DNA of 64,000 nucleotides, from contig CAVPBK010000006.1 of NCBI GenBank assembly GCA_963701855.1, positions 1,440,001-1,504,000 of the forward strand, read 5' to 3'. A program made the translations under genes and the position numbers. This document shows, in pieces, positions 48,652 to 58,914 of the stretch. The notes below the pieces were generated by a model. That model was not told the origin of the DNA and did no database searches. It saw nothing but the letters and a program-made list of their open reading frames with translations. This DNA comes from Nitrospirota bacterium. Lineage in GTDB: Bacteria > Nitrospirota > Nitrospiria > Nitrospirales > Nitrospiraceae. Each line of letters opens with the position of its first letter. Positions within the stretch are counted from its first letter, which is position 1.

Positions 48652-49209
48652 ATGGCAAAAGAACTACCGATTCTGCCATCAACCGCCCAACCGACTGACG
48701 AGGAACAGGCCGAGCCGCACCAGTATTCTCGCGTGTTTTGTCAAAAGGAAAATTCCCCCCCGCTCCGTTTGCTCTTGGAGTTCCTCACCTCACGCGGTCA
48801 GACGCCTATCACTCCACCGAACATGGACGACAGCATGTTGGATGAATGGGCCTGGGTTCAGGTGACGCTCGGGTACGATCGCAATAGAAAGCCGATCCAA
48901 GTGGTCTGTGTCCGGGATCGAGGCACGTATCAGGACGTATTCGACAAAGAGAAGGAACAGTTTTTAGCCATCCTCGCTGCTCACGACGATGTCGAGGCGG
49001 GACTTGTGCGTGGGTTTGTGGAACGCGCGCGGTTTGTGCTCACGACCCGGTTCGCCCAGAATGATATGACCGACGAAGGCTATGACTTCAACGGATGGAT
49101 CCTGGAATTCTTCCAAGACCAATGCAGCGGAATCGTCCAGATTGATAACCAGGGCTTCTACTCACCCAAAGGCGATCTCATCGTCGACCTCTCCATCAAA
49201 GTAGAATGA
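48652..49209 (+). CDS. Hypothetical protein
   Basis: 185-aa frame, 6 bp from the next gene. Confidence 0.65.
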   Translation: MAKELPILPSTAQPTDEEQAEPHQYSRVFCQKENSPPLRLLLEFLTSRGQTPITPPNMDDSMLDEWAWVQVTLGYDRNRKPIQVVCVRDRGTYQDVFDKEKEQFLAILAAHDDVEAGLVRGFVERARFVLTTRFAQNDMTDEGYDFNGWILEFFQDQCSGIVQIDNQGFYSPKGDLIVDLSIKVE

Positions 49210-49215
49210 GCAACA

Positions 49216-49845
49216 GTGGCAGGCCCGACTCCACCCGATCCTCCTCCGCTGTATCAAAAAACCGATCACTGGTTCCAGCGGGCCACTGCCGCCCTGCTGG
49301 GTGAAGTTCCCTGCCGACTCGGCTGCACCAGCTGTTGTATCGGCCCCTTTCCCATCACCATCCTCGACGTCCAGACCCTCCAACAGGGACTCGCCGCTCT
49401 TCCGCCGGATCACCGCCATCGCATCGAACAGCGCGCCATCAAACAGACCGCCGCCATGGAGGCCTCGTTCCCACAACTGATTCACACCGACCTGCTCGAT
49501 AATTGGCCCGATCGGGAGATCGATCGACTGGTCACAGAATTTCACCACCATTCCTGTCCAGCGCTGGAAGCCGACGGGCGCTGCGGCATCTACCATCACC
49601 GACCGCTGGCCTGCCGATCGATGGGCATCCCGACAGAAGATCGCGGTCTGGCCCATGGCGCCTGCGAAGTCCAAACCTTCATCCCGATCCTGCGGCTCCC
49701 CTCCGCATTCAGAGAGGAAGAAGATCGCTTGGCGCAGGAGGAAGCGGCTTCACTAGCTGCGCTTCGTCGGGCCACCGGATCAACAGGAGAAGAAGTATTC
49801 CTGCCCTACGGGTTCTTGGCGAGCCGCATCAAGCAAGTAGGCTGA
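49216..49845 (+). CDS. YkgJ family CxxxCxxCC cysteine-cluster protein
   Basis: CRLGCTSCC, CPAL...CGIY..RPLACR. Confidence 0.85.
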   Translation: MAGPTPPDPPPLYQKTDHWFQRATAALLGEVPCRLGCTSCCIGPFPITILDVQTLQQGLAALPPDHRHRIEQRAIKQTAAMEASFPQLIHTDLLDNWPDREIDRLVTEFHHHSCPALEADGRCGIYHHRPLACRSMGIPTEDRGLAHGACEVQTFIPILRLPSAFREEEDRLAQEEAASLAALRRATGSTGEEVFLPYGFLASRIKQVG

Positions 49846-49945
49846 GGTCGAGGTCAAGGTTGAGCGAAGATCTGACGTTCTCATCTTAGCCTCAATTAGC
49901 CTGAACCTCAACCTTCTCCGCGCAGCGAACCTTTTCAGCATCCGG
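49839..49945. repeat. Family A half-element with hexamer hairpin
   Basis: AGGCTGAGGTCGAGGTCAAGGTTGAG...CTCAACCTT...CTTTTCAGCATCCGG; overlaps the YkgJ stop codon. Confidence 0.65.
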
Positions 49946-49997
49946 CCTAGACAGAGGTTAAAATCCTGTGCTAGTCTCAGCCCCCTTGGTTGCAGGA

Positions 49998-50074
49998 GCG
50001 CCTGTAGCTCAGCTGGATAGAGCATCAGCCTCCGGAGCTGAGGGCCACAGGTTCAAATCCTGTCAGGCGCACCA
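49998..50074 (+). tRNA. tRNA-Arg(CCG)
   Basis: GCGCCTG/CAGGCGC acceptor stem, TCAGC-CTCCGGA-GCTGA, GGTTCAAATCC, CCA. Confidence 0.95.
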
Positions 50075-50128
50075 AACACAGGCAAGGAACAGGGCCGCAC
50101 ACAGATATCCGCCACATACATACCCGGT

Positions 50129-50200
<72 letters not shown>

Positions 50201-50204
<4 letters not shown>

Positions 50205-50306
50205 AACCTCGCTTGCGCGTGCCGCCGCGTTCGATCACATCGCGGCGGATATCCAATACCACCAGTGATCTTCTTCCTCTATACCAAACCTCGCTTGCGC
50301 GTGCCG
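50201..50306 (+). repeat. 24-bp direct repeat starting at the tRNA-Lys ACCA end
   Basis: ACCAAACCTCGCTTGCGCGTGCCG at 50201-50224 and 50283-50306. Confidence 0.85.
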
Positions 50307-50524
50307 GCGGCCATTCAGGCGAAGCCTCTCTTCATTGACGCCGCCGGATAACTCCCTCCAGTGGACCCTCACTTTCTTTTGCTTTCTCGATTTCCCCATT
50401 CCAAAAGAGCTCTTGCAAAGACCCTCTGGCTTTGAAAGATTTGGCTATATTTCCTTCAAAGGTACAATGGCTTCGTAATAGAGAACGGTGCCAGACACCT
50501 GTACTTGAGCAGAAATGCCGCACG

Positions 50525-50881
50525 TTACCCAGCGACCTTGTCCAATTTCCCGGTGATCCTCGTACGGACTGTCCCTCGCCGTCGCCCACTGGGAGCCTTG
50601 CGAACCGTGACTTCTACGTCTTGGCCTAACAGGGAAAGAAAGTGAATGAGGCGTTCGATAGAGAATCCCGCCATCTGACCGGCGAGGAGTTTTGAGACCT
50701 TAGCCTGGTCGATCCCTAGTTGAGCCGCCGCTTCGACCTGTTTCCACCCCCGCCTCTTGATGGTTTCTTGAAGCGCTTGAAGCAGACCGCTTTTCAGAAT
50801 TAGTTCTGCGGACTTTTCCTCTGAGAACCCCAAGTCCCTAAATACACTCCCGCTGCCTTTAGTGACTGTCGCGCGTGTCAT
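50525..50881 (-). CDS. XRE/HTH antitoxin (HigA-like)
   Basis: GSGSVFRDLGF, Q.EAA..LGIDQ.KVSKLL.G...FSIERL; ATGA overlap with the toxin. Confidence 0.88.
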   Translation of the reverse strand: MTRATVTKGSGSVFRDLGFSEEKSAELILKSGLLQALQETIKRRGWKQVEAAAQLGIDQAKVSKLLAGQMAGFSIERLIHFLSLLGQDVEVTVRKAPSGRRRGTVRTRITGKLDKVAG

Positions 50882-51216
50882 AGCTGTTGCTCCTTCCTCC
50901 ACTTCAATAAGTCGGCATATCGGCCCTTGGCAAGTTGGATATCGACTTTCGGAGTCTTCTGAGAGCGCTTCTCGAAGACATGCAGCACGTAGATCGCCTC
51001 CTCAAGCTTGGCGACGTAGAGAACCCGATAGGTCCCGCTTTCTTCCCAGACGCGGATCTCCTGCACACCGGCCCCAACCGTTGGCATGGGCTTCCAATCA
51101 TCCGGTTCTTTTCCTTGCTGTACCTTGAACAGTTGATGCCCCGCGGCTTCCCTGGCATTTTCGGGAAGCTCCCGCATGTCCTCCCGAGACGATCCGACGA
51201 AATGAACCGGCTTCAT
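50878..51216 (-). CDS. RelE/ParE (Gp49/HigB-like) toxin
   Basis: PDDWKPM..VG.GV.EIR, YRVLYVA, IYVLHVF.KRSQKT; toxin upstream of antitoxin. Confidence 0.9.
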   Translation of the reverse strand: MKPVHFVGSSREDMRELPENAREAAGHQLFKVQQGKEPDDWKPMPTVGAGVQEIRVWEESGTYRVLYVAKLEEAIYVLHVFEKRSQKTPKVDIQLAKGRYADLLKWRKEQQL

Positions 51217-51403
51217 TCAAGTCCTGCTGTACGGTGCTCTATGGTAGCCTGCCGCACGCTATGATATGCTACAATTGGCATATCTGAAAGAGGCCCGGTG
51301 AGTTGTTGAAAGCGGACCCTAACGGAGGTATCACACTTATCACAATATGATAGTTTTGAGGCACAAAGGCCTGCTGACTTTCGATGTCCGATTGAAAATT
51401 GCT

Positions 51404-51430
51404 GGGCCGTAGGTTCGACCCCTACACGGC
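51404..51430 (+). repeat. att-like 27-bp duplicate of the tRNA-Lys 3' portion
   Basis: GGGCCGTAGGTTCGACCCCTACACGGC identical to 50172-50198. Confidence 0.9.
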
Positions 51431-51455: not shown

Positions 51456-52451
51456 ATGTTCATGAAATTAATGCTTTGTAATATCGGGTGGCCAACCAAG
51501 TACGAAGGCTCCTTTCTTAAGGGTAGTCATGAATTCATAAAGAAACACAAAGGGGACGGATCGGAACGATGGAATTTCAAGAAGTTTCCGGACGGCAAGG
51601 TGTATGGATACATCAGGGGAATGGGAGGAAAGAGCCACTCTCCTCCTCAAGTGTCTGCAAATCTACAGAGTGGATGGACAATCCTTTACTATGCAAAAGA
51701 TCCCGATGATCAGATCCTAAAGTTTGTCGGATTCTATCGAAATGCTACTGTTTATTCTCGGTGGCGAGACCATCCAATCGATAAGGCCATTCGAGGAGAG
51801 ACTGAAAAGCATGTGTACTGCGCAACAACTTCCGCTCGTCAGGCGATATTGTTTCCGGAAGATAGGCGCCCGGTTCTCGGGAAAGGCTTTGGCCAAGCGG
51901 GCTTTGTTTATCTCACAAACCCGAAGACTCGAAAGATATCCAGGGGAAATGCAAGCCTCTACAAGCGAGTCCTCAGCCACCTAAAGGGCCGTCTTCCCCA
52001 CCCAGTAGACGACAAGAAAGTGAGGAGGCGTGCTTCGCCAACCACTATTGATCAGGAGCACCGCGAGGCTGTGGAAAAGGTGTCGATGTCATTTGTAACG
52101 CGCCAGCTCCGGAGGGAAGGATTTTCAGTGAAGGATATCTCACGGGAGAAAATCGGATTCGATCTCCAGTGCGCGCGAGGCGCAGATGTTGTGTATGTGG
52201 AAGTTAAAGGGACAGCTGGAACTGAACCCAGGTTTATCATCACTAAAAACGAGATCGAGTTTATGGAAAAAGACCCGTCTGCAATAATCGCCATCGTCAC
52301 CACTGCACTTGCTCAGCCAATGCTCCACGCTCTAAAGGGATTGAATATTCAGAAGGCATATAATTTAAGGCCTCTCCAGCTCGAGGCCATACCTCGCCTC
52401 AATAATTCGCACATAATTACTCGCAGGAAAAAGATGTTTAACCTGCCTTAG
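51456..52451 (+). CDS. DUF3883 (PD-(D/E)xK-like) domain protein with an uncharacterised N-terminal domain
   Basis: VEK.SM..V...L...GF.V.D....IGFDL.C...YVEVKGT...ITKNE. Confidence 0.75.
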   Translation: MFMKLMLCNIGWPTKYEGSFLKGSHEFIKKHKGDGSERWNFKKFPDGKVYGYIRGMGGKSHSPPQVSANLQSGWTILYYAKDPDDQILKFVGFYRNATVYSRWRDHPIDKAIRGETEKHVYCATTSARQAILFPEDRRPVLGKGFGQAGFVYLTNPKTRKISRGNASLYKRVLSHLKGRLPHPVDDKKVRRRASPTTIDQEHREAVEKVSMSFVTRQLRREGFSVKDISREKIGFDLQCARGADVVYVEVKGTAGTEPRFIITKNEIEFMEKDPSAIIAIVTTALAQPMLHALKGLNIQKAYNLRPLQLEAIPRLNNSHIITRRKKMFNLP

Positions 52452-52610
52452 GGGGGAAGGAATGAGCCATCTCTACCTGCTTGCGCTGATCTCCAGGCGG
52501 GGAGTAGGCTCAGCATTCGTGGGTCAAGTAAAACTTAGACATTGCCAGCAGACGTATTTTCCGATAATAATGTGTCGCACACTCTGCGAATTCCGATCAG
52601 CTTCAGCTCC

Positions 52611-53444
52611 ATGTCTGAAAAGAAATCTAATCTTCTTCCCGATTACGAACGACCGCCTGTAATCGAAGTGGTTTATGGCATGCAGTTTTCCCCGCTGATT
52701 GAACTGCGCACCCCACAGATCGGTCTTTTATGGCAAACAATCAAGGCTGATTACCCCAAGTTTAAAGAAATGCCAGTTCTCGCTCCCGTCATCGAGCGTT
52801 TCGATCAAGAGGGGAAAACCGAGCAGCCTACACTTGAGTTTCTTCAGGAAGCACCTCTTCCTCGGATGTTTTTCTTGGATGCCCACGAAAATTGGGTAAT
52901 GCAAATTCAGAATGATAGGTTTCTCCATAATTGGAAACGAGTTAACGATGACGACGTTTATCCAAGATATATTGCTGTCTCAGGAAAGTTCTTCCAGGGG
53001 TGGGACAGATTTTGTGAATTTTGTCGATCTGAAGGCATTTCTAAGCCAAAGTTAAATCAATTGGAATTGACGTATATCAATCACATACCCGTTCGTGCGA
53101 ACAGTACCATTGGAGACGAGATTACGGCGATATTCCCAGACATAGTTTGGCGAAAGAACCACGAATTTCTGCCGGTCCCAGAATCGCTTTCATGGAAAAC
53201 TTCTTTCCTCCTCCCAAACAACCAAGGCCGCTTACATGTTTCATTGCGTCATGCGATGCGCATAAAAGATAAGACCCCAACACTTCTCCTCGAACTCACA
53301 GCTAGAGGTATTCCTCAAACGCCCGAACTCCCTCAGATTATGGAATGGTTCTCGCTCAGTCGTGAATGGATAGTCAGGGGCTTCTCGGACCTGACTAATT
53401 CTGAGGTGCAGAAGAATGTGTGGGATCTGAAGACAAAGCTATGA
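52611..53444 (+). CDS. TIGR04255 family protein
   Basis: LPDYERPPVIEVVYGMQF, MQIQNDRFLHNW, YPRY, ELTYINHI, FSDLT...W. Confidence 0.8.
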   Translation: MSEKKSNLLPDYERPPVIEVVYGMQFSPLIELRTPQIGLLWQTIKADYPKFKEMPVLAPVIERFDQEGKTEQPTLEFLQEAPLPRMFFLDAHENWVMQIQNDRFLHNWKRVNDDDVYPRYIAVSGKFFQGWDRFCEFCRSEGISKPKLNQLELTYINHIPVRANSTIGDEITAIFPDIVWRKNHEFLPVPESLSWKTSFLLPNNQGRLHVSLRHAMRIKDKTPTLLLELTARGIPQTPELPQIMEWFSLSREWIVRGFSDLTNSEVQKNVWDLKTKL

Positions 53445-54136
53445 CTGAGTACGCGACTGAAGATAGTACAACAAGAAATAGGCACGCTGGCTCACTTTTT
53501 AGGCCGCTATACAAGATGGCTTCGGCCTTAGAAGAACCCAATGAGTATCAACGCAGGCTAGTTTCCTTACCAGGAGCTACTCTATCTTCTGTAGTCACTC
53601 ACCGAGTTGCATCAAGTCCTGATGTCTGGGGTGGGCAAGGAACAATTACGACATCACAATACGCACCCAACGTTTCTAATGCGACTGTCACGGTTGCAAC
53701 CAGCTTTGCTCATTTAATTGCGACGGAATATCTTGATTCTAGGAACATTGCCATTTCAAAGTTTGGCCTTGGCGTACGCAATGTTTTGTGGACTACCGAG
53801 CCGATTGAAGTTCCTGAAAATGCACCAGCGCATGCTCAGGCACGAAGCGTTCTTTTATCAGACGAGGTTCTAACGTTTTGCTCTCGAGAGCAGATCTTCA
53901 ATCATTTTCATCGCGCCCTTCGATTAGCTCAACAATCCTTTCTTGACCTAAAGAATATCGAAGTTGAAATTGAAAACGACCCAGAGTCTGAGGGTGAATG
54001 GCTAGTGATAGTTGTCCAAATCCATGGTGAAATAGGCAAAGTCCTTGATATGTACGATGCTTACACAAGGAAATTTGTTCGGGTAGTTCCTTGGCCGGCC
54101 CTGGACAAGATACGACTAATTTACGACTTCGTCTGA
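53441..54136 (+). CDS. Hypothetical protein: Ser/Thr-rich N-half plus small alpha/beta C-domain (possible antitoxin)
   Basis: ATGA overlap with the upstream gene; ends 2 bp before the HEPN gene. Confidence 0.65.
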   Translation: MTEYATEDSTTRNRHAGSLFRPLYKMASALEEPNEYQRRLVSLPGATLSSVVTHRVASSPDVWGGQGTITTSQYAPNVSNATVTVATSFAHLIATEYLDSRNIAISKFGLGVRNVLWTTEPIEVPENAPAHAQARSVLLSDEVLTFCSREQIFNHFHRALRLAQQSFLDLKNIEVEIENDPESEGEWLVIVVQIHGEIGKVLDMYDAYTRKFVRVVPWPALDKIRLIYDFV

Positions 54137-54138
54137 TT

Positions 54139-54582
54139 GTGGACCCCAAGAAATTCTTAGAGCTAGCGCAAGTGCTTGCGCTTGAGACACCTCAAGCCTC
54201 AAAACTCAGAACTGCCACAAGTCGTGCGTACTACGCAGCATATAACGTTAGCGTCGAGACGTTAGATGGTATGGGATTTCGAATAGACCGTTCTGGAAAT
54301 GGCCACGGACAAGTTCAGAATTTACTTGGCAATAGTAAAAACGAGGATCTTAAGAAAATCAGTAGTGACCTGGGAAGCTTGCTTACTAATAGGATAGGTG
54401 CAGATTACCGGATGGATGACCCGAGAGCAGAAAACCCGACCAACGTGAAGGCGCACGTGCTGCACGCAAGTAGAATCATTCAAACACTGGAGCGGTGTTG
54501 CGGAGGCCCCAATAGAAACGACATTATCCAGGCAATAAAGGACTATGGCCAATTGATCAAAGGTGCTGGGCAAAAAGGATAG
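54139..54582 (+). CDS. HEPN domain protein
   Basis: FLELA..L, RTATSRAYYAAY, H..V, RIGADY (Rx4Y-type motif). Confidence 0.8.
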   Translation: MDPKKFLELAQVLALETPQASKLRTATSRAYYAAYNVSVETLDGMGFRIDRSGNGHGQVQNLLGNSKNEDLKKISSDLGSLLTNRIGADYRMDDPRAENPTNVKAHVLHASRIIQTLERCCGGPNRNDIIQAIKDYGQLIKGAGQKG

Positions 54583-54773
54583 AACCCGCCTCTATTCGCA
54601 CTCGGTTCTGAGAATCTCAACACCCCACTCCACCCTACCTTAGGAAAATAACAGCTATCGAGAAATAAAAGAGCGCCATTCTGCCTATTTCAGCAGCAGC
54701 GGCCCCGTTTGCGCTGATCTTCAGGGAGAAGTAAGCTAACTGCGCTTGCTGTTCCGTTTCCAGGAGGCTCGCC

Positions 54774-55229
54774 ATGTGGGCTGTCTTCATCTTCTTGCTC
54801 CTGCTGCTGCCACTGCCTCTCTCCGTGCACGCGGAACATCTCGGCGAGTTGAGCGCGAATCCGTTCAATCCTAATTCCACATCCAATCCCTTCGGAGCCG
54901 GAAGCCCCTTCAAGCCGGACGGCCTGAACAATCCCTTCAGTCCCTACAGCAGTCCGTTTAGTAATCAATCGGCGACGAATCCATTCGCCACCGACGCGCC
55001 TCGGCTCCTTGCTCGTCTCTCTGGTCCGTCTGGTCTCTTTGGTTTCTCTGGCGATTTTCCGGTCCGGTCAACAAAACAGACCAAATAGACCAGATAAACG
55101 AGATAGACCAGTTTCGTATCTTCGTTCTCGCCGGACTCAATCAACAATCCCTTCGGCGCAGGGAATCCCTACAGCCCCAGCAGTCCCACGAATCCCTACG
55201 GCCGCGGCCTGCGAATCGAAGGACGCTGA
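54774..55229 (+). pseudogene. Secreted NPF/NPY-repeat protein interrupted by a 9-mer repeat element
   Basis: AGGAGG RBS, signal peptide and NPF repeats to ...DAPRL; ~115-bp insert with stops at 55086, 55095 and 55104; same frame resumes FSPDSINNPFGAGNPYSPSSPTNPYGRGLRIEGR*. Confidence 0.8.
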
Positions 55230-55283
55230 TCCAGCCGTTGAACAGCTCCACGTGATCTCATGGATGCTTGATACCTTGGCCTT

Positions 55284-55505
55284 ACACCTGCGAACCAGCT
55301 GCGTTGCGGCAACATCAAAGCGACCATCTGGGAGAATGTCAGCGAGAAAGGTCCGTTCTTCTCAACGACATTCTCTCGCCCCTTCAAGGATCAGTCTGGC
55401 GCGTGGCGCAATGGGACTTCTTTCAGTCTCAACGACCTTGAAGCGCTTGTCACCGTCGTGCGTGACGCCAAGGAATGGATCTCCGCTCATGCCTTGAAGC
55501 GTTGA
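55284..55505 (+). pseudogene. 5'-truncated small gene remnant
   Basis: Frame TPANQLRCGNIKATIWEN...FSRPFKDQSGAWRNGTSFSLNDLEAL...AKEWI* with no start after TGA at 55269; followed by a hairpin at 55518-55545. Confidence 0.5.
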
Positions 55506-55912: not shown

Positions 55913-57160
55913 TTAGTCGTGGATGATATTCATAAGGGAACGGTGTACTTTCAATCCACCGTTGTATTCGATGAGCCCCAATTTACGGAACTTGTTCATG
56001 AAAAAGCTCACGCGGGAGCGCGTCGTACCGATAATTTCCGCTAGCGTTTCCTGGCTGATCTTCGCAATCACCCGCTCCTGTTTGCCGTCCGTGCCAAAGT
56101 TGGCCATCAGGAGCAGGACCCGCGCCAGCCGCATCTCGCTGGAGTGGATAAGTTGATCCAGCATATCCTCCTGCAGCCGGATGTTACGGGTCAGCAGATG
56201 GGAGAGGAACAGTGCGGAAAAACCCGGTTCGTCGTGGAGCACCTGAACCGCCTGCGATTTCTCCAGTCGCACGATCCTGCAATTCGTCAGGGCCGTGGCA
56301 GTAACCATACGCGTCGGCTGGCCCGCGAGGCAGCTCTCGCCAAAGAAGTCGTCGGCCCCGAGCATGCCGACGGCCACTTCTTTGCCCTTTGAGGACACGA
56401 TCGTGAGCTTGATCGTGCCGTGCTGGATAAAACAGATGTCGTCGGACGGGTCGCCTTGCGAGAACACTTGCTGGTTCTTCCGGTAGTTGCCAATCGTGTG
56501 TCCTGCGCCGATCTTGGCGAGAAAGATTTGTGGATCGAACGGCAGTGTTGATTTCGGTTCCTTTCCTGCTTTCTTTAAAACCGGCAGCGGCCTAAAACGG
56601 CGACTGATTCTGGATAACTCAAGAGTGATTCCCTGAGGAGGCAGCACGAAATCAACACAGGCTGAAGCCTGAGCACTGAGAGGCATGCCGTTTATATCGG
56701 GAGACATATCCTGAGCAAAGGTTGTTCCTCCCATGGCCCTAATATGCTTGCATCCCTCAATACCGTCTCCCCCATATCCAGCGAGGAGAATGCCGATCGC
56801 ACGCGCCTCCATTGCCTCTGCTAACGACATAAACAAACAATCTATCTGCGCGTGCTTTCGAGTGGGCGGAGAGACGACCTTGAACGTATGGCTCTCAATG
56901 AGAAGATCTGCGTCCGGAGGACTCATGTAGACGTGATTCGCATGGATCGGCATCGCCGTGGAAGCCACCAGTACTGGCATTTTCGTGTGACGAGAGAGAA
57001 TTTCAGCTAACTGACCATTGGCGGTGGGGAGAAGATGAGAAACAAAGACAAAGGCCATACCTGTATGAGACGACATGGCGTCCAAGAGCGCTTTATAGGC
57101 GTGAAGCGCTCCAGCTGAGCCCCCGATACCAACAATGAGATTCGGATGTACTGGTCCCAT
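55913..57160 (-). CDS. CheB methylesterase-like domain fused to a Crp/Fnr regulator
   Basis: VGIGGSAGA, FVSHL, GILLAGYGGDG, GMP.SA (CheB); FSQGD, FGESCL, SQETLAEIIGTTRSRVS (cNMP-binding + HTH). Confidence 0.8.
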   Translation of the reverse strand: MGPVHPNLIVGIGGSAGALHAYKALLDAMSSHTGMAFVFVSHLLPTANGQLAEILSRHTKMPVLVASTAMPIHANHVYMSPPDADLLIESHTFKVVSPPTRKHAQIDCLFMSLAEAMEARAIGILLAGYGGDGIEGCKHIRAMGGTTFAQDMSPDINGMPLSAQASACVDFVLPPQGITLELSRISRRFRPLPVLKKAGKEPKSTLPFDPQIFLAKIGAGHTIGNYRKNQQVFSQGDPSDDICFIQHGTIKLTIVSSKGKEVAVGMLGADDFFGESCLAGQPTRMVTATALTNCRIVRLEKSQAVQVLHDEPGFSALFLSHLLTRNIRLQEDMLDQLIHSSEMRLARVLLLMANFGTDGKQERVIAKISQETLAEIIGTTRSRVSFFMNKFRKLGLIEYNGGLKVHRSLMNIIHD

Positions 57161-57188
57161 CGCTAAGCCAAATTTCCATCATCCACTT

Positions 57189-58703
57189 TTACCGTTGATT
57201 GTTGTTTTGTCTCTCAGAAATATTGTTTTCCAGCCTTCTTTTTCTGAGTGAGGCTTCTGCCATATCCACTGCTGCTAATTCAATTCCATCATCACTCAAA
57301 ATTAATTTTTGGACATCGCTGGAGTGGCCCATGCCACGAGACTTCACAATGTACAGTCCACGAATACGTTTCTTACCCGCTTCTTCTATTTCTCTCACGA
57401 CAACCCACGTGTCAATTAACGACGAGACGCCGACTTCACCGCTTGTGTAATTTTGTGCGGTTGACGAAACCAGACTGGTAAAATACCCGGTAATGCCCTT
57501 GGATTTTAAAAGATCAATCATGCGAGTCACCATTGATTGAATTTCACGTTGGCTCCCCTCTGCAATGAGACTGGTCAGGGGATCTATGACCACAGATTGT
57601 GGCTTGAAACCTTCAAGGGTCTTGTATAAATCGAGTAGATGCTGCTCTAGCCCAAAAAAGGAAGGTCTCGTAGACACGATCTTTAAGAGTCCTCTTTTCA
57701 CCACTGGTTCCAAATGAAGACCTATAGAAGTCATGTTTTGAATGAGCTGACCCGAAGATTCCTCATAAGACAGGAACAGACACCGTTCTCCACGTTTACA
57801 TCGTTCTAATGCGAATGCAGCCGCGAGGCTTGTTTTGCCAGTGCCTGCGGTACCTGAAATGAGTATCGTGCTGCCTTTGGTAAACCCTCCACCCCGGAAC
57901 ATTTTATCTAACGACGGAATTCCCGTCGAAACCCTCTTGCCTGTGCCCGGTTGATCGAGTCCAGCAGCCGTAATAGGAATGACTGAAAGGCCATTTGTAT
58001 CAATTACGAACGGATATTCGTTTGTTCCATGATTTGACCCACGATATTTAATGACACGAACCCTACGGATGGAAATTTGTTCATTCACTCTGTTATCCAG
58101 AAAAATGATGCAATCGGAAATGTACTCCTCCAGGCCATGACGCGTATACACGCCCTGTCCCGGCTCGCCGGTCACGATTGCCGTCACGTGTTTCGCCTTA
58201 AGCCATCGGAAAAGTCTTTTGATCTCTAAGCGAAGAATGCCTGAATTGGTGAGACCTGCAAAGAGAGATTCGATCGAATCTAACACCACGCGTTTGGCGC
58301 CAATGGAATCAATGGCATGTTCCAAACGAATGAGGAGTCCTTCAAGATTAAAGTCGCTTTCTTGAATATCTCTCCGCTGCAACAGAACATGGACAAGTAG
58401 AATCTTCTTTTGTGACACCAGCCTTTGCAAATCCAGGTTGAGAGAAGCCACGTCGTGATACAGTTCATCTTCTGTCTCTTCAAAGGACATGAAGACGCCT
58501 GGCTCGTTGTAATTGATCGCACCCTTGACGACAAAATCAATCCCCCAAAGGGTTTTTCCAGACCCAGCACTTCCGCAAATTAACGTGGTTCTATTTTTCG
58601 GAAGCCCACCTTCTGTAATTTGGTCAAAACCTTTGATGCCGGTGGGGCACTTGAGTAATTGATAATGGTTCAGGGCCTTTGTTTTCTTAGAAGTTTTGGG
58701 CAT
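57189..58703 (-). CDS. kaiC: Double-domain KaiC-like ATPase
   Basis: GSAGSGKT and GTAGTGKT Walker A, SFEE/SYEE, KYRGSNH, VSSLIDT phosphosite region, KSRGMGHS. Confidence 0.9.
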   Translation of the reverse strand: MPKTSKKTKALNHYQLLKCPTGIKGFDQITEGGLPKNRTTLICGSAGSGKTLWGIDFVVKGAINYNEPGVFMSFEETEDELYHDVASLNLDLQRLVSQKKILLVHVLLQRRDIQESDFNLEGLLIRLEHAIDSIGAKRVVLDSIESLFAGLTNSGILRLEIKRLFRWLKAKHVTAIVTGEPGQGVYTRHGLEEYISDCIIFLDNRVNEQISIRRVRVIKYRGSNHGTNEYPFVIDTNGLSVIPITAAGLDQPGTGKRVSTGIPSLDKMFRGGGFTKGSTILISGTAGTGKTSLAAAFALERCKRGERCLFLSYEESSGQLIQNMTSIGLHLEPVVKRGLLKIVSTRPSFFGLEQHLLDLYKTLEGFKPQSVVIDPLTSLIAEGSQREIQSMVTRMIDLLKSKGITGYFTSLVSSTAQNYTSGEVGVSSLIDTWVVVREIEEAGKKRIRGLYIVKSRGMGHSSDVQKLILSDDGIELAAVDMAEASLRKRRLENNISERQNNNQR

Positions 58704-58914
58704 ACCTGTCTCCAATCAGTTCGAGCTGACATTCCGGTCTGAGACTAAAATAATACAACGTCGAAAACTGTCCCATAGTGCACAGTTGCAAGATTGAATG
58801 AGAGGACGGGCAGTCAGACAGGATGATCGTCTCCCGATTCAGCGACCCATGTCCTACCTAGGTTGAAATACACTGGCGAAAATCTTGTTTGAGCTCTTCC
58901 ACGAGGATGCGTCT

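Follow-up and report, generated by a model that had tools for sequence, protein, structure and literature searches.

Positions 52611 to 54582 of the window, by which we mean the whole 64,000-nucleotide stretch analysed (Nitrospirota bacterium, GenBank assembly GCA_963701855.1, contig CAVPBK010000006.1, positions 1,440,001 to 1,504,000 of the forward strand), hold three coupled genes which we refer to as A, B and C. They encode a protein of family TIGR04255, a two-part protein and, as judged by family profiles, a HEPN protein. The C-terminal domain of B (B C-domain) and the HEPN protein form a constant pair; five or more different front ends precede it, TIGR04255 being one of them. The three genes are best read as a member of a modular three-part toxin-antitoxin-like cassette consisting of an input, a clamp and an output. 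Its parts are located as follows.

52611..53444, forward strand: gene A, ATG to TGA, 277 aa, TIGR04255 protein
53441..54136, forward strand: gene B, ATG to TGA, 231 aa
53441..53845, forward strand: N-terminal region of B, residues 1-135, class N4, Ser/Thr-rich, low-confidence model
53846..54136, forward strand: C-terminal alpha/beta domain of B, residues 136-231, confident predicted fold, isoelectric point (pI) 4.9
54139..54582, forward strand: gene C, GTG to TAG, 147 aa, HEPN protein of PF05168 (HEPN-T) type as judged by family profiles, pI 9.15

The ATG of gene B overlaps the stop codon of gene A in the common sequence ATGA, and the stop codon of B is separated by 2 bp from the GTG of gene C. 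For gene C, the GTG at 54139 is favoured over the TTG at 54091, the start given in the list of open reading frames (ORFs), because the majority of the C homologues begin at the equivalent residue. The GC content is 0.454-0.466 over 52500-54499, compared with 0.54-0.58 at 49000-50999 and 0.536-0.550 at 54500-55499. A preliminary description of this DNA had noted three low-GC genes linked through an overlap (ATGA) and a gap of 2 bp, and this is correct.

The conservation of the gene pair was analysed by a pattern scan for the C-terminal part of B in one genome per species. It revealed 15 loci from Nitrospirota, Thermodesulfobacteriota/Syntrophia-type and Scalindua metagenome-assembled genomes, and in all 15 a C homologue is located directly 3' of the B C-domain. 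A scan of metagenomes added 78 loci, giving 93 in total, 89 of them with the B ORF. In 78 of these 89, a match to the C profile starts at most 80 bp from the stop codon of B; in one locus (L102) it overlaps B by 89 bp. In five of the 89, the contig breaks off within 400 bp of the end of B. Among the 84 loci which thus have room for a further gene, 79 carry a HEPN gene directly behind the B C-domain, so that the pairing is near-obligate. Coupled genes, an acidic 5' partner, a basic 3' gene and this retention of the pair make up the generic layout of a type II toxin-antitoxin (TA) system. The complete order of TIGR04255, B C-domain protein and HEPN protein, which the preliminary description had expected to recur, was found at 15 loci. 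The recurrence of the gene order is far beyond chance.

Gene C alone has no Pfam match at E-values up to 1, and its assignment was made through its relatives. Among 28 relatives from a large protein collection, one has a match to PF05168 and one is named UPF0332; in a set of 22 relatives, PF05168 is matched by eight (best E 5.9e-6). Searching the PDB with the family profile identified entry 9xbd, a 'HEPN domain-containing protein' (E 9.6e-4), in an alignment which spans the SRAYYA and R-x3-DY stretches of the family. A literature search on 9XBD gave no relevant paper. The two motifs named in the preliminary description are indeed present in gene C, as S28-R-A-Y-Y-A33 and R85-x4-Y90. Residues R24, R29, Y31, H56 and R85 are invariant in all 69 distinct C homologues, and D89 and Y90 are found in 68 of them. 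The His of the canonical Rx4-6H motif is absent; gene C has R85-I-G-A-D89-Y90 together with the invariant H56. For PF05168, PMC3710099 includes the description of a variant in which D replaces H; a further conserved H in this variant could make up an alternative active site. Gene C fits the variant in both features, the D-for-H exchange and the second invariant His. By its family profiles, gene C is classified as an HEPN protein of the PF05168 (HEPN-T) type and is a probable RNA-cutting toxin.

The 43 relatives of gene B are of nearly fixed length, and none has a Pfam domain. The protein falls into two parts. Ser and Thr make up 20.7% of residues 1-135 and 7.3% of residues 136-231, and in a structure model based on 34 sequences, the predicted local distance difference test score (pLDDT) is below 50 for the first part whereas block means reach 80-91 in the second. 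The N-terminal half had been described as Ser/Thr-rich and of low complexity. The composition bears out the former, while the latter is overstated because this half holds invariant residues within its own family. The description of the second half as a compact alpha/beta domain without a GS..DxD motif agrees with our model, which predicts the order helix, helix, strand, strand, helix, strand. Its conserved columns are F167, D180-P181-E182, W187, L202, Y205-D206, Y208, P217-W218-P219 and I224-R225-L226-x-Y228, of which F167, D180, P181, L202, Y205, P217, I224 and Y228 are invariant; no GS/DxD motif is found among them.

The preliminary description had further taken B for an antitoxin derived from the MNT nucleotidyltransferases. 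This origin is unsupported because the GS/DxD motif is missing, the topology differs and nucleotidyltransferases reach only Z-scores of about 5 among dozens of unrelated folds. Foldseek, which had been suggested for comparing the B C-domain with MNT, returned nothing at E <=1e-3. In an exhaustive structure aligner, the best match is a baseplate protein (Z 6.6), tied with RimP, C-terminal domains of CDF transporters, KH-like and other two-layer alpha/beta folds; the nucleotidyltransferases CdnE (5.2), TUTase (5.0) and FAM46B (4.9) are tied with many unrelated alpha/beta folds. Neither Pfam nor NCBIfam contains a nucleotidyltransferase family matching gene B, and no helix-turn-helix (HTH) or ribbon-helix-helix (RHH) match was obtained from Pfam, NCBIfam or PADLOC. 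Sequence searches of the PDB with profiles of B and of the B C-domain gave only rows at chance level.

The B C-domain is widespread. Its profile, compared with 1.84 billion representative proteins, matched 1232 clusters (50% identity) at E <=1e-3 and 642 at E <=1e-10. In all of the best 150 of the 1232 clusters, the domain is located at the extreme C-terminus. After leaving out two proteins already among the gene B relatives, the remaining 148 are 94-845 aa long (median 207.5), 28 of them being at most 125 aa, and 145 have no Pfam family at E <=1e-4. The Atlas neighbours of the domain measure 93-104 aa. The domain thus also occurs alone, at the size of an antitoxin. The pI values of 4.90 for the domain and 9.15 for gene C form the acidic/basic charge pattern typical of antitoxin and toxin.

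Stand-alone copies of 97 aa without a HEPN gene were seen at L065 1101-1394, L066 3495-3788 and L067 479-772, where they stand among small ORFs of unassigned function. Such a copy could be an orphan antitoxin. The idea that these copies serve phages as anti-toxins found no support, the B C-domain not being found in phage collections.

The regions N-terminal to the B C-domain are highly diverse. BLAST comparison of 123 proteins divides them into 56 classes, 44 of which are singletons. Class N4, the type present in the window, as well as N5 and N7, go with TIGR04255 as the upstream gene (15 loci), and N4 occurs only behind TIGR04255 (seven of seven uncut loci). Class N2 goes with U1, an unassigned family of 216-234 aa (14 loci), as do four single-locus classes, and N3 goes with U3, an unassigned family of 234 aa (eight loci). 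For N9 and N10, the upstream gene encodes an SDH serine protease similar to ClpP (PF01972, E 8e-18; two loci). Class N1 has no coupled upstream gene; its N-terminal region is itself an N6-adenine DNA methylase, present as a fusion and carrying a TaqI_C-like domain (PF02384; 10 loci), for which mad2, type II methyltransferase and PglX are the nearest PADLOC models. Upstream class and N-terminal class never mix in 37 coupled pairs, counted over the N-terminal classes having more than one pair. A comparison of N4, N5 and L004-type N-terminal regions by hhalign detected no relation. This arrangement, a constant B C-domain/HEPN pair behind several front ends, is the main structure of the system, and the preliminary description had overlooked it.

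The N1-type fusions are about 900-930 aa long, and each is followed by a HEPN gene (L013 609-3323, L015 894-3608, L084, L105 and L111; further examples, likewise followed by a HEPN gene, are L112, L117, L121 and L123). They would represent a methylase-tethered RNase module.

Gene A had been assigned to TIGR04255 from the outset, and the profile data confirm this. The match to the NCBIfam model 'sporadTIGR04255' (252 positions, curated cut-off 30 bits) covers model positions 2-248 with 69.2 bits (E 4.6e-19); the genome-level profile search gave 68.8 bits, and Atlas neighbours carry the name TIGR04255 (score 0.97). No match to gene A was found in Pfam or PADLOC v2.0.0, a sequence search of the PDB with the TIGR04255 profile gave only chance-level rows, and no paper naming TIGR04255 was found.

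The model of gene A, computed from an alignment of 34 family members, has a pLDDT of 86.7 and a predicted template modelling score of 0.84. It consists of two repeats of strand, helix, several strands and helix, which form one long antiparallel sheet with the helices behind it; the predicted fold is a two-repeat sheet similar to that of the TATA-binding protein (TBP). Foldseek listed AdoMet decarboxylase, McsB and TBP at E-values from 5e-5 to 1e-3 (TBP itself at 2e-4 to 1e-3) with low TM-scores of 0.24-0.42. In the exhaustive aligner, the kinase domain of McsB ranks at the top (Z 8.6 over 180 residues, 4.0 A), together with arginine kinase (Z 8.2). TBP-like domains follow, with LsoA at Z 7.0 (72 residues), TBP at 6.3, RNase H3's N-terminal domain at 6.1 and RnlA at 5.6, while glutamine synthetase, glutamate-cysteine ligase and PafA have Z 5.3-5.7. 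These Z values lie in a range reached by unrelated folds, and the common arrangement alone is certain. Conservation of 90% or more in 34 TIGR04255 proteins is limited to four residues (P16, Y117, Y155 and F258), and binding therefore fits gene A better than catalysis. Thirty-two of the 34 proteins are acidic (median pI 5.73; gene A 6.34). From these sequence features, gene A appears to be a non-enzymatic binding protein, with a protein more likely than a nucleic acid as its ligand.

Of 301 genomes sampled from the phylum, 52 carry TIGR04255. We compared 32 loci, 30 from the phylum sample and two from the genome of the window itself. By mechanical chaining of ORFs, two further coupled ORFs follow TIGR04255 in 24 of the 32, and in 17 the following ORF overlaps it by 4 bp. 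The genes in second and third place represent several unrelated pairs. The commonest consists of a family of 150-190 aa (13 loci) and one of 124-168 aa (11 loci). The third gene encodes a HEPN protein in five loci, two of which have a different second gene, DUF7689 in two loci (E 2e-45) and another shared family in three. A literature search found no paper naming DUF7689. In four loci, the second gene encodes an Xre-type HTH protein.

The second TIGR04255 operon of the same genome lies 24 kb away (contig C6, 1516053-1517470; L016 762-2178, minus strand). It comprises TIGR04255 (233 aa), a 4-bp overlap, a 136-aa ORF, a 2-bp gap and a 101-aa ORF with a weak match to HicA (E 0.008). The operon adjoins a C-terminal fragment of a phage integrase (L016 2627-2938).

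The family is also present on plasmids of four other phyla. Behind TIGR04255, the plasmids of Crinalium and Mycobacterium paragordonae carry two hypothetical genes that overlap, and that of Vibrio parahaemolyticus carries one hypothetical gene and a gene annotated as zeta toxin. Variable toxin-like genes behind TIGR04255 had been anticipated in the preliminary description, and HEPN, a protein with a weak match to HicA, DUF7689 and the annotated zeta toxin are found there. On plasmid pTB1 of Thermus brockianus, the gene behind TIGR04255 (L128 3336-3779, 147 aa) contains the sequence LEIDLDPETDEEHIVLYARF, which resembles the DPE-hairpin motif of the B C-domain; the profile search, run at E <=1, did not report it.

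The features bordering the cassette are the following.

52477..52514, forward strand: 38-nt repeat element at the left cassette edge; about six further copies in the same genome
52542..52571, forward strand: sigma-70-like promoter candidate, TTGCCA, 18 nt, AATAAT (10/12), 40 bp 5' of gene A
54704..54737, forward strand: degenerate second copy of the element, upstream of the ORF for a small secreted protein (54774-55088)

Four sigma-70-like sites were found in the region and 3.6 are expected from shuffles; as this count shows no excess, the promoter is listed as no more than a candidate. Contigs of relatives from two other data sets match the window from exactly position 52514 and carry unlike DNA 5' of it. 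Past about 54634-54645, they run into a copy of the 38-nt element. From these sharp edges, A-B-C behaves as a discrete cassette of 2.1 kb at the 38-nt element. The B C-domain was detected in one of the 301 sampled genomes of the phylum, that of the window itself. The low GC content, the adjoining Gp49/HTH_37 pair and NOV_C gene (see below), the occurrence in one of 301 genomes and the discrete edges place the cassette in an accessory, mobile context.

The 38-nt element has the core TTGCGCTGATCTCCAGGCGGGGAGTAGGCT. Further copies are found on contig C6 (1505708-1505741 and 1515112-1515151), contig C11 (120085-120119 and 115376-115409) and contig C12 (37448-37479) of the same genome. Several are located about 40 nt before the ribosome-binding site and ATG of small ORFs whose products start with MWxVFxFLL, a signal-peptide-like N-terminus; the degenerate copy at 54704-54737 has the same spacing. 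One member of the family behind the element is the ORF at 54774-55088. Its 104-aa product begins like a signal peptide, contains the 'NPF' motif repeatedly (NPFNPNSTSNPF..NNPFSPYSSPF..TNPF) and has no Pfam match. In metagenome and metatranscriptome contigs, the element is very abundant with varied flanks, and the coverage in one RNA run matching the window falls on the element alone and not on the genes. The element looks like a common leader or regulatory box of a paralogous family of small secreted proteins. It was also considered as an integron attC-like hairpin or structured RNA, which was rejected since it folds no better than its shuffles (z 0.57); an Rfam search of 52300-54900 found nothing.

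The preliminary description had placed the operon in a tRNA island. The genes for tRNA-Arg (49998-50074) and tRNA-Lys (50129-50204) are indeed located 2.4 kb upstream. An exact copy of the last 27 nt of tRNA-Lys, for which no match is expected by chance, is found at 51404-51430. As this repeat ends the first islet at 51430, the operon lies beside the tRNA-bounded islet, just outside it. The islet between the 27-nt direct repeats (50204-51430) encodes a TA pair made up of a Gp49-like protein (PF05973, E 4e-27) and an HTH_37 protein (E 3e-23) on the minus strand; no integrase was seen among its ORFs. Directly 5' of the cassette, 51456-52451 encodes a protein of 331 aa with a C-terminal NOV_C/DUF3883-type domain (PF13020, E 1e-10). 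Its PADLOC matches, to HmaA and TmtA at their C-terminal ends, are weak; it may be another defence-island gene. Farther downstream (55913-58715, minus strand), a fusion of CheB methylesterase, cNMP-binding and Crp-HTH domains (415 aa), an unusual combination, adjoins a KaiC-like double ATPase (508 aa).

The preliminary description had regarded the operon as a candidate for an undescribed system. In PADLOC-DB v2.0.0, no part of the cassette has a convincing score: gene A has no match, gene B only TniQ_IB (E 0.05) and gene C only HEPN_IX (E 0.045). Among relatives, weak matches are PDC-M05B for one C homologue (E 9e-4) and PDC-M32A for an unrelated second-gene family (E 2e-5). Among the papers listed on HEPN and tripartite TA, none has a title or abstract describing the cassette.

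Similarity to several known systems is partial. As in the HEPN-MNT (HepT-MntA, type VII) and PF05168 HEPN-T pairs, a small basic HEPN gene stands directly behind a small acidic partner. However, gene B shows no sign of being a nucleotidyltransferase, given its different topology, the missing GS/DxD motif and the lack of a convincing fold match; the cassette has a third gene, and gene B has an exchangeable N-terminal region. Toxin-antitoxin-chaperone systems consist of a toxin, a SecB-like chaperone and an antitoxin with an extension that depends on the chaperone. The preliminary description had drawn on them as an analogy, taking TIGR04255 for a putative chaperone or sensor which would release the HEPN toxin on infection. 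The cassette resembles such systems in having three genes and an antitoxin-like protein with a poorly structured extension which possibly depends on a third protein. It differs in that gene A, with its predicted TBP-like sheet, has no SecB family match in Pfam or NCBIfam, the extension of B, with 110-170 aa, lies at the N-terminus, the putative toxin is a HEPN protein, and unrelated families can stand in for the third component. PanA (DUF4065) is a hyperpromiscuous antitoxin or adaptor domain in combinatorial TA networks. A single conserved small module recombining with many partners is common to both; unlike PanA, the present system has two layers, the B C-domain being faithful to one toxin type while its front end is promiscuous, and TIGR04255 being promiscuous with respect to gene pairs. 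In RnlA-RnlB and LsoA-LsoB, as outlined in PMC8266594, a HEPN RNase with TBP-like domains is combined with a small antitoxin and has an anti-phage role. The model of gene A gives weak matches to LsoA and RnlA. In RnlA, however, the TBP-like domains and HEPN are in one chain, whereas the cassette encodes them separately; a relation in sequence was not found, and TIGR04255 occurs with genes other than HEPN as well.

We propose tentatively, and with somewhat less than even confidence, that the C-terminal domain of B binds and silences the HEPN protein while TIGR04255 binds the N-terminal region of B and controls its hold. Gene C would be the effector, a HEPN-T ribonuclease with a likely active site of R85 and, instead of the canonical Rx4-6H histidine, the invariant H56. 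Gene B would be a two-part adaptor or antitoxin, its acidic residues 136-231 binding and silencing the basic HEPN protein and its residues 1-135 serving as an exchangeable handle that matches the upstream gene product. Gene A, as the acidic input part, would bind this handle and set the hold of B on HEPN, either by stabilizing B or by releasing it once a trigger, e.g. a phage product, competes. The prediction of an A-B-C complex with A as the scored partner gave 0.00, 0.50 and 0.00 in three runs (mark 0.32) and speaks neither for binding nor against it. The cassette is probably an abortive-infection or defence module on mobile DNA, its likely biological role being abortive infection or the stabilization of mobile DNA.

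Several points weigh against this proposal. Near-identical relatives are contained in the covariation counts, so that independent events are far fewer than loci, and common inheritance of entire cassettes would produce this covariation table without binding. Profile-profile comparison of U1 (13 sequences) and U3 (six) with TIGR04255 detected no relation, and 'one kind of input' is therefore not established. A pLDDT below 50 in the N-terminal region of B can mean disorder or too few sequences. The HEPN call on gene C comes from family profiles, the protein itself having no Pfam HEPN match, and the catalytic competence of the D-for-H variant is, in the relevant text of PMC3710099, a prediction. 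Five loci with room for a HEPN gene do not have one (L065-L067, which represent one element, L074 and L082). The B C-domain was found neither by tblastn in 50,697 phage and 72,556 plasmid records nor by a pattern scan of IMG/VR, and for this reason the evidence for mobility is indirect. Finally, the contacts between the proteins, RNase activity, toxicity, neutralization, the trigger and the role in phage defence are what we infer.

If B and C are an ordinary TA pair, TIGR04255 might be a DNA-binding autorepressor which supplies the DNA binding that B lacks. In omega-epsilon-zeta and paaR-paaA-parE, the regulators omega and PaaR are encoded first in the operon. Gene A likewise comes first, with a promoter-like site just 5' of it, gene B is without an HTH or RHH match, and the predicted fold of A resembles the saddle of TBP, a DNA-binding shape (Z 6.3). 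On the Vibrio plasmid, TIGR04255 stands where omega would be expected, before the hypothetical gene and the annotated zeta toxin. We nevertheless consider this unlikely: acidity in 32 of 34 family members is unusual for a DNA binder, and an autorepressor gives no reason why the N-terminal class of B tracks the class of the upstream gene or why a protease or a fused methylase should stand in the same place.

The TBP-like sheet would have another meaning in a split RnlA/LsoA-like nuclease, with TIGR04255 supplying two TBP-like substrate-binding domains in trans; B would then be similar to RnlB or bridge A and C, and A would be a cofactor of the toxin which guides RNA or RNA-DNA substrates. Gene A aligns with the TBP-like parts of LsoA and RnlA and with RNase H3's N-terminal domain, and a fusion of HEPN to TBP-like domains is noted in PMC3710099. 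The Z values are, however, in the range of unrelated folds and the family is acidic. Moreover, TIGR04255 also heads cassettes with a non-RNase third gene (the annotated zeta toxin, DUF7689), and B-HEPN pairs occur with quite different upstream genes or with none. We regard both the arrangement and the roles it assigns to A and B as improbable. An enzymatic function of TIGR04255 is very improbable. It would be similar to glutamine synthetase or guanidino kinases (cf. McsB, PafA) and phosphorylate the Ser/Thr-rich N-terminal region of B, or ligate a tag to it, so that B is degraded and HEPN freed. The best whole-domain structural matches, the McsB kinase domain and arginine kinase, and, at lower scores, glutamine synthetase, the ligase and PafA, are in line with this, and the ClpP-like protease in the same upstream place (two loci) fits a control via the stability of B. 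On the other hand, the family has no conserved polar residue, 'LDIDVF', a D-x-D-like stretch in the family consensus, is missing from the subfamily of the window, and the TM-scores in Foldseek are low (0.24-0.42).

The proposal that TIGR04255 acts on B can be extended to a wider, two-layer reading, which taken as a whole we regard as rather doubtful: the B C-domain as a new, HEPN-dedicated antitoxin or adaptor for at least five inputs, and TIGR04255 as a general non-enzymatic third component. The inputs would be TIGR04255, two unassigned families, a protease similar to ClpP and, in fused form, a BREX/type IIG-like DNA methylase. TIGR04255 itself would dock on lineage-specific antitoxin extensions, gating HEPN, HicA-like, zeta and DUF7689 proteins, and would thus be a promiscuous trigger or chaperone module for TA and defence cassettes across bacterial phyla.

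HEPN toxins and the concept of tripartite TA systems are known already. What the cassette adds is an apparently undescribed partner domain of HEPN proteins and, for TIGR04255, an initial functional setting. The methylase-fused form suggests that a DNA modification enzyme and an RNase effector are linked, comparable to PrrC and its restriction-modification partner as these are presented in PMC3710099. If the proposal is true, both TIGR04255 and the B C-domain family would gain a role, and HEPN toxins would gain a partner other than MNT. The plug-and-play design of exchangeable input, constant clamp and RNase output would then help to explain how TA systems are rewired into phage sensors.

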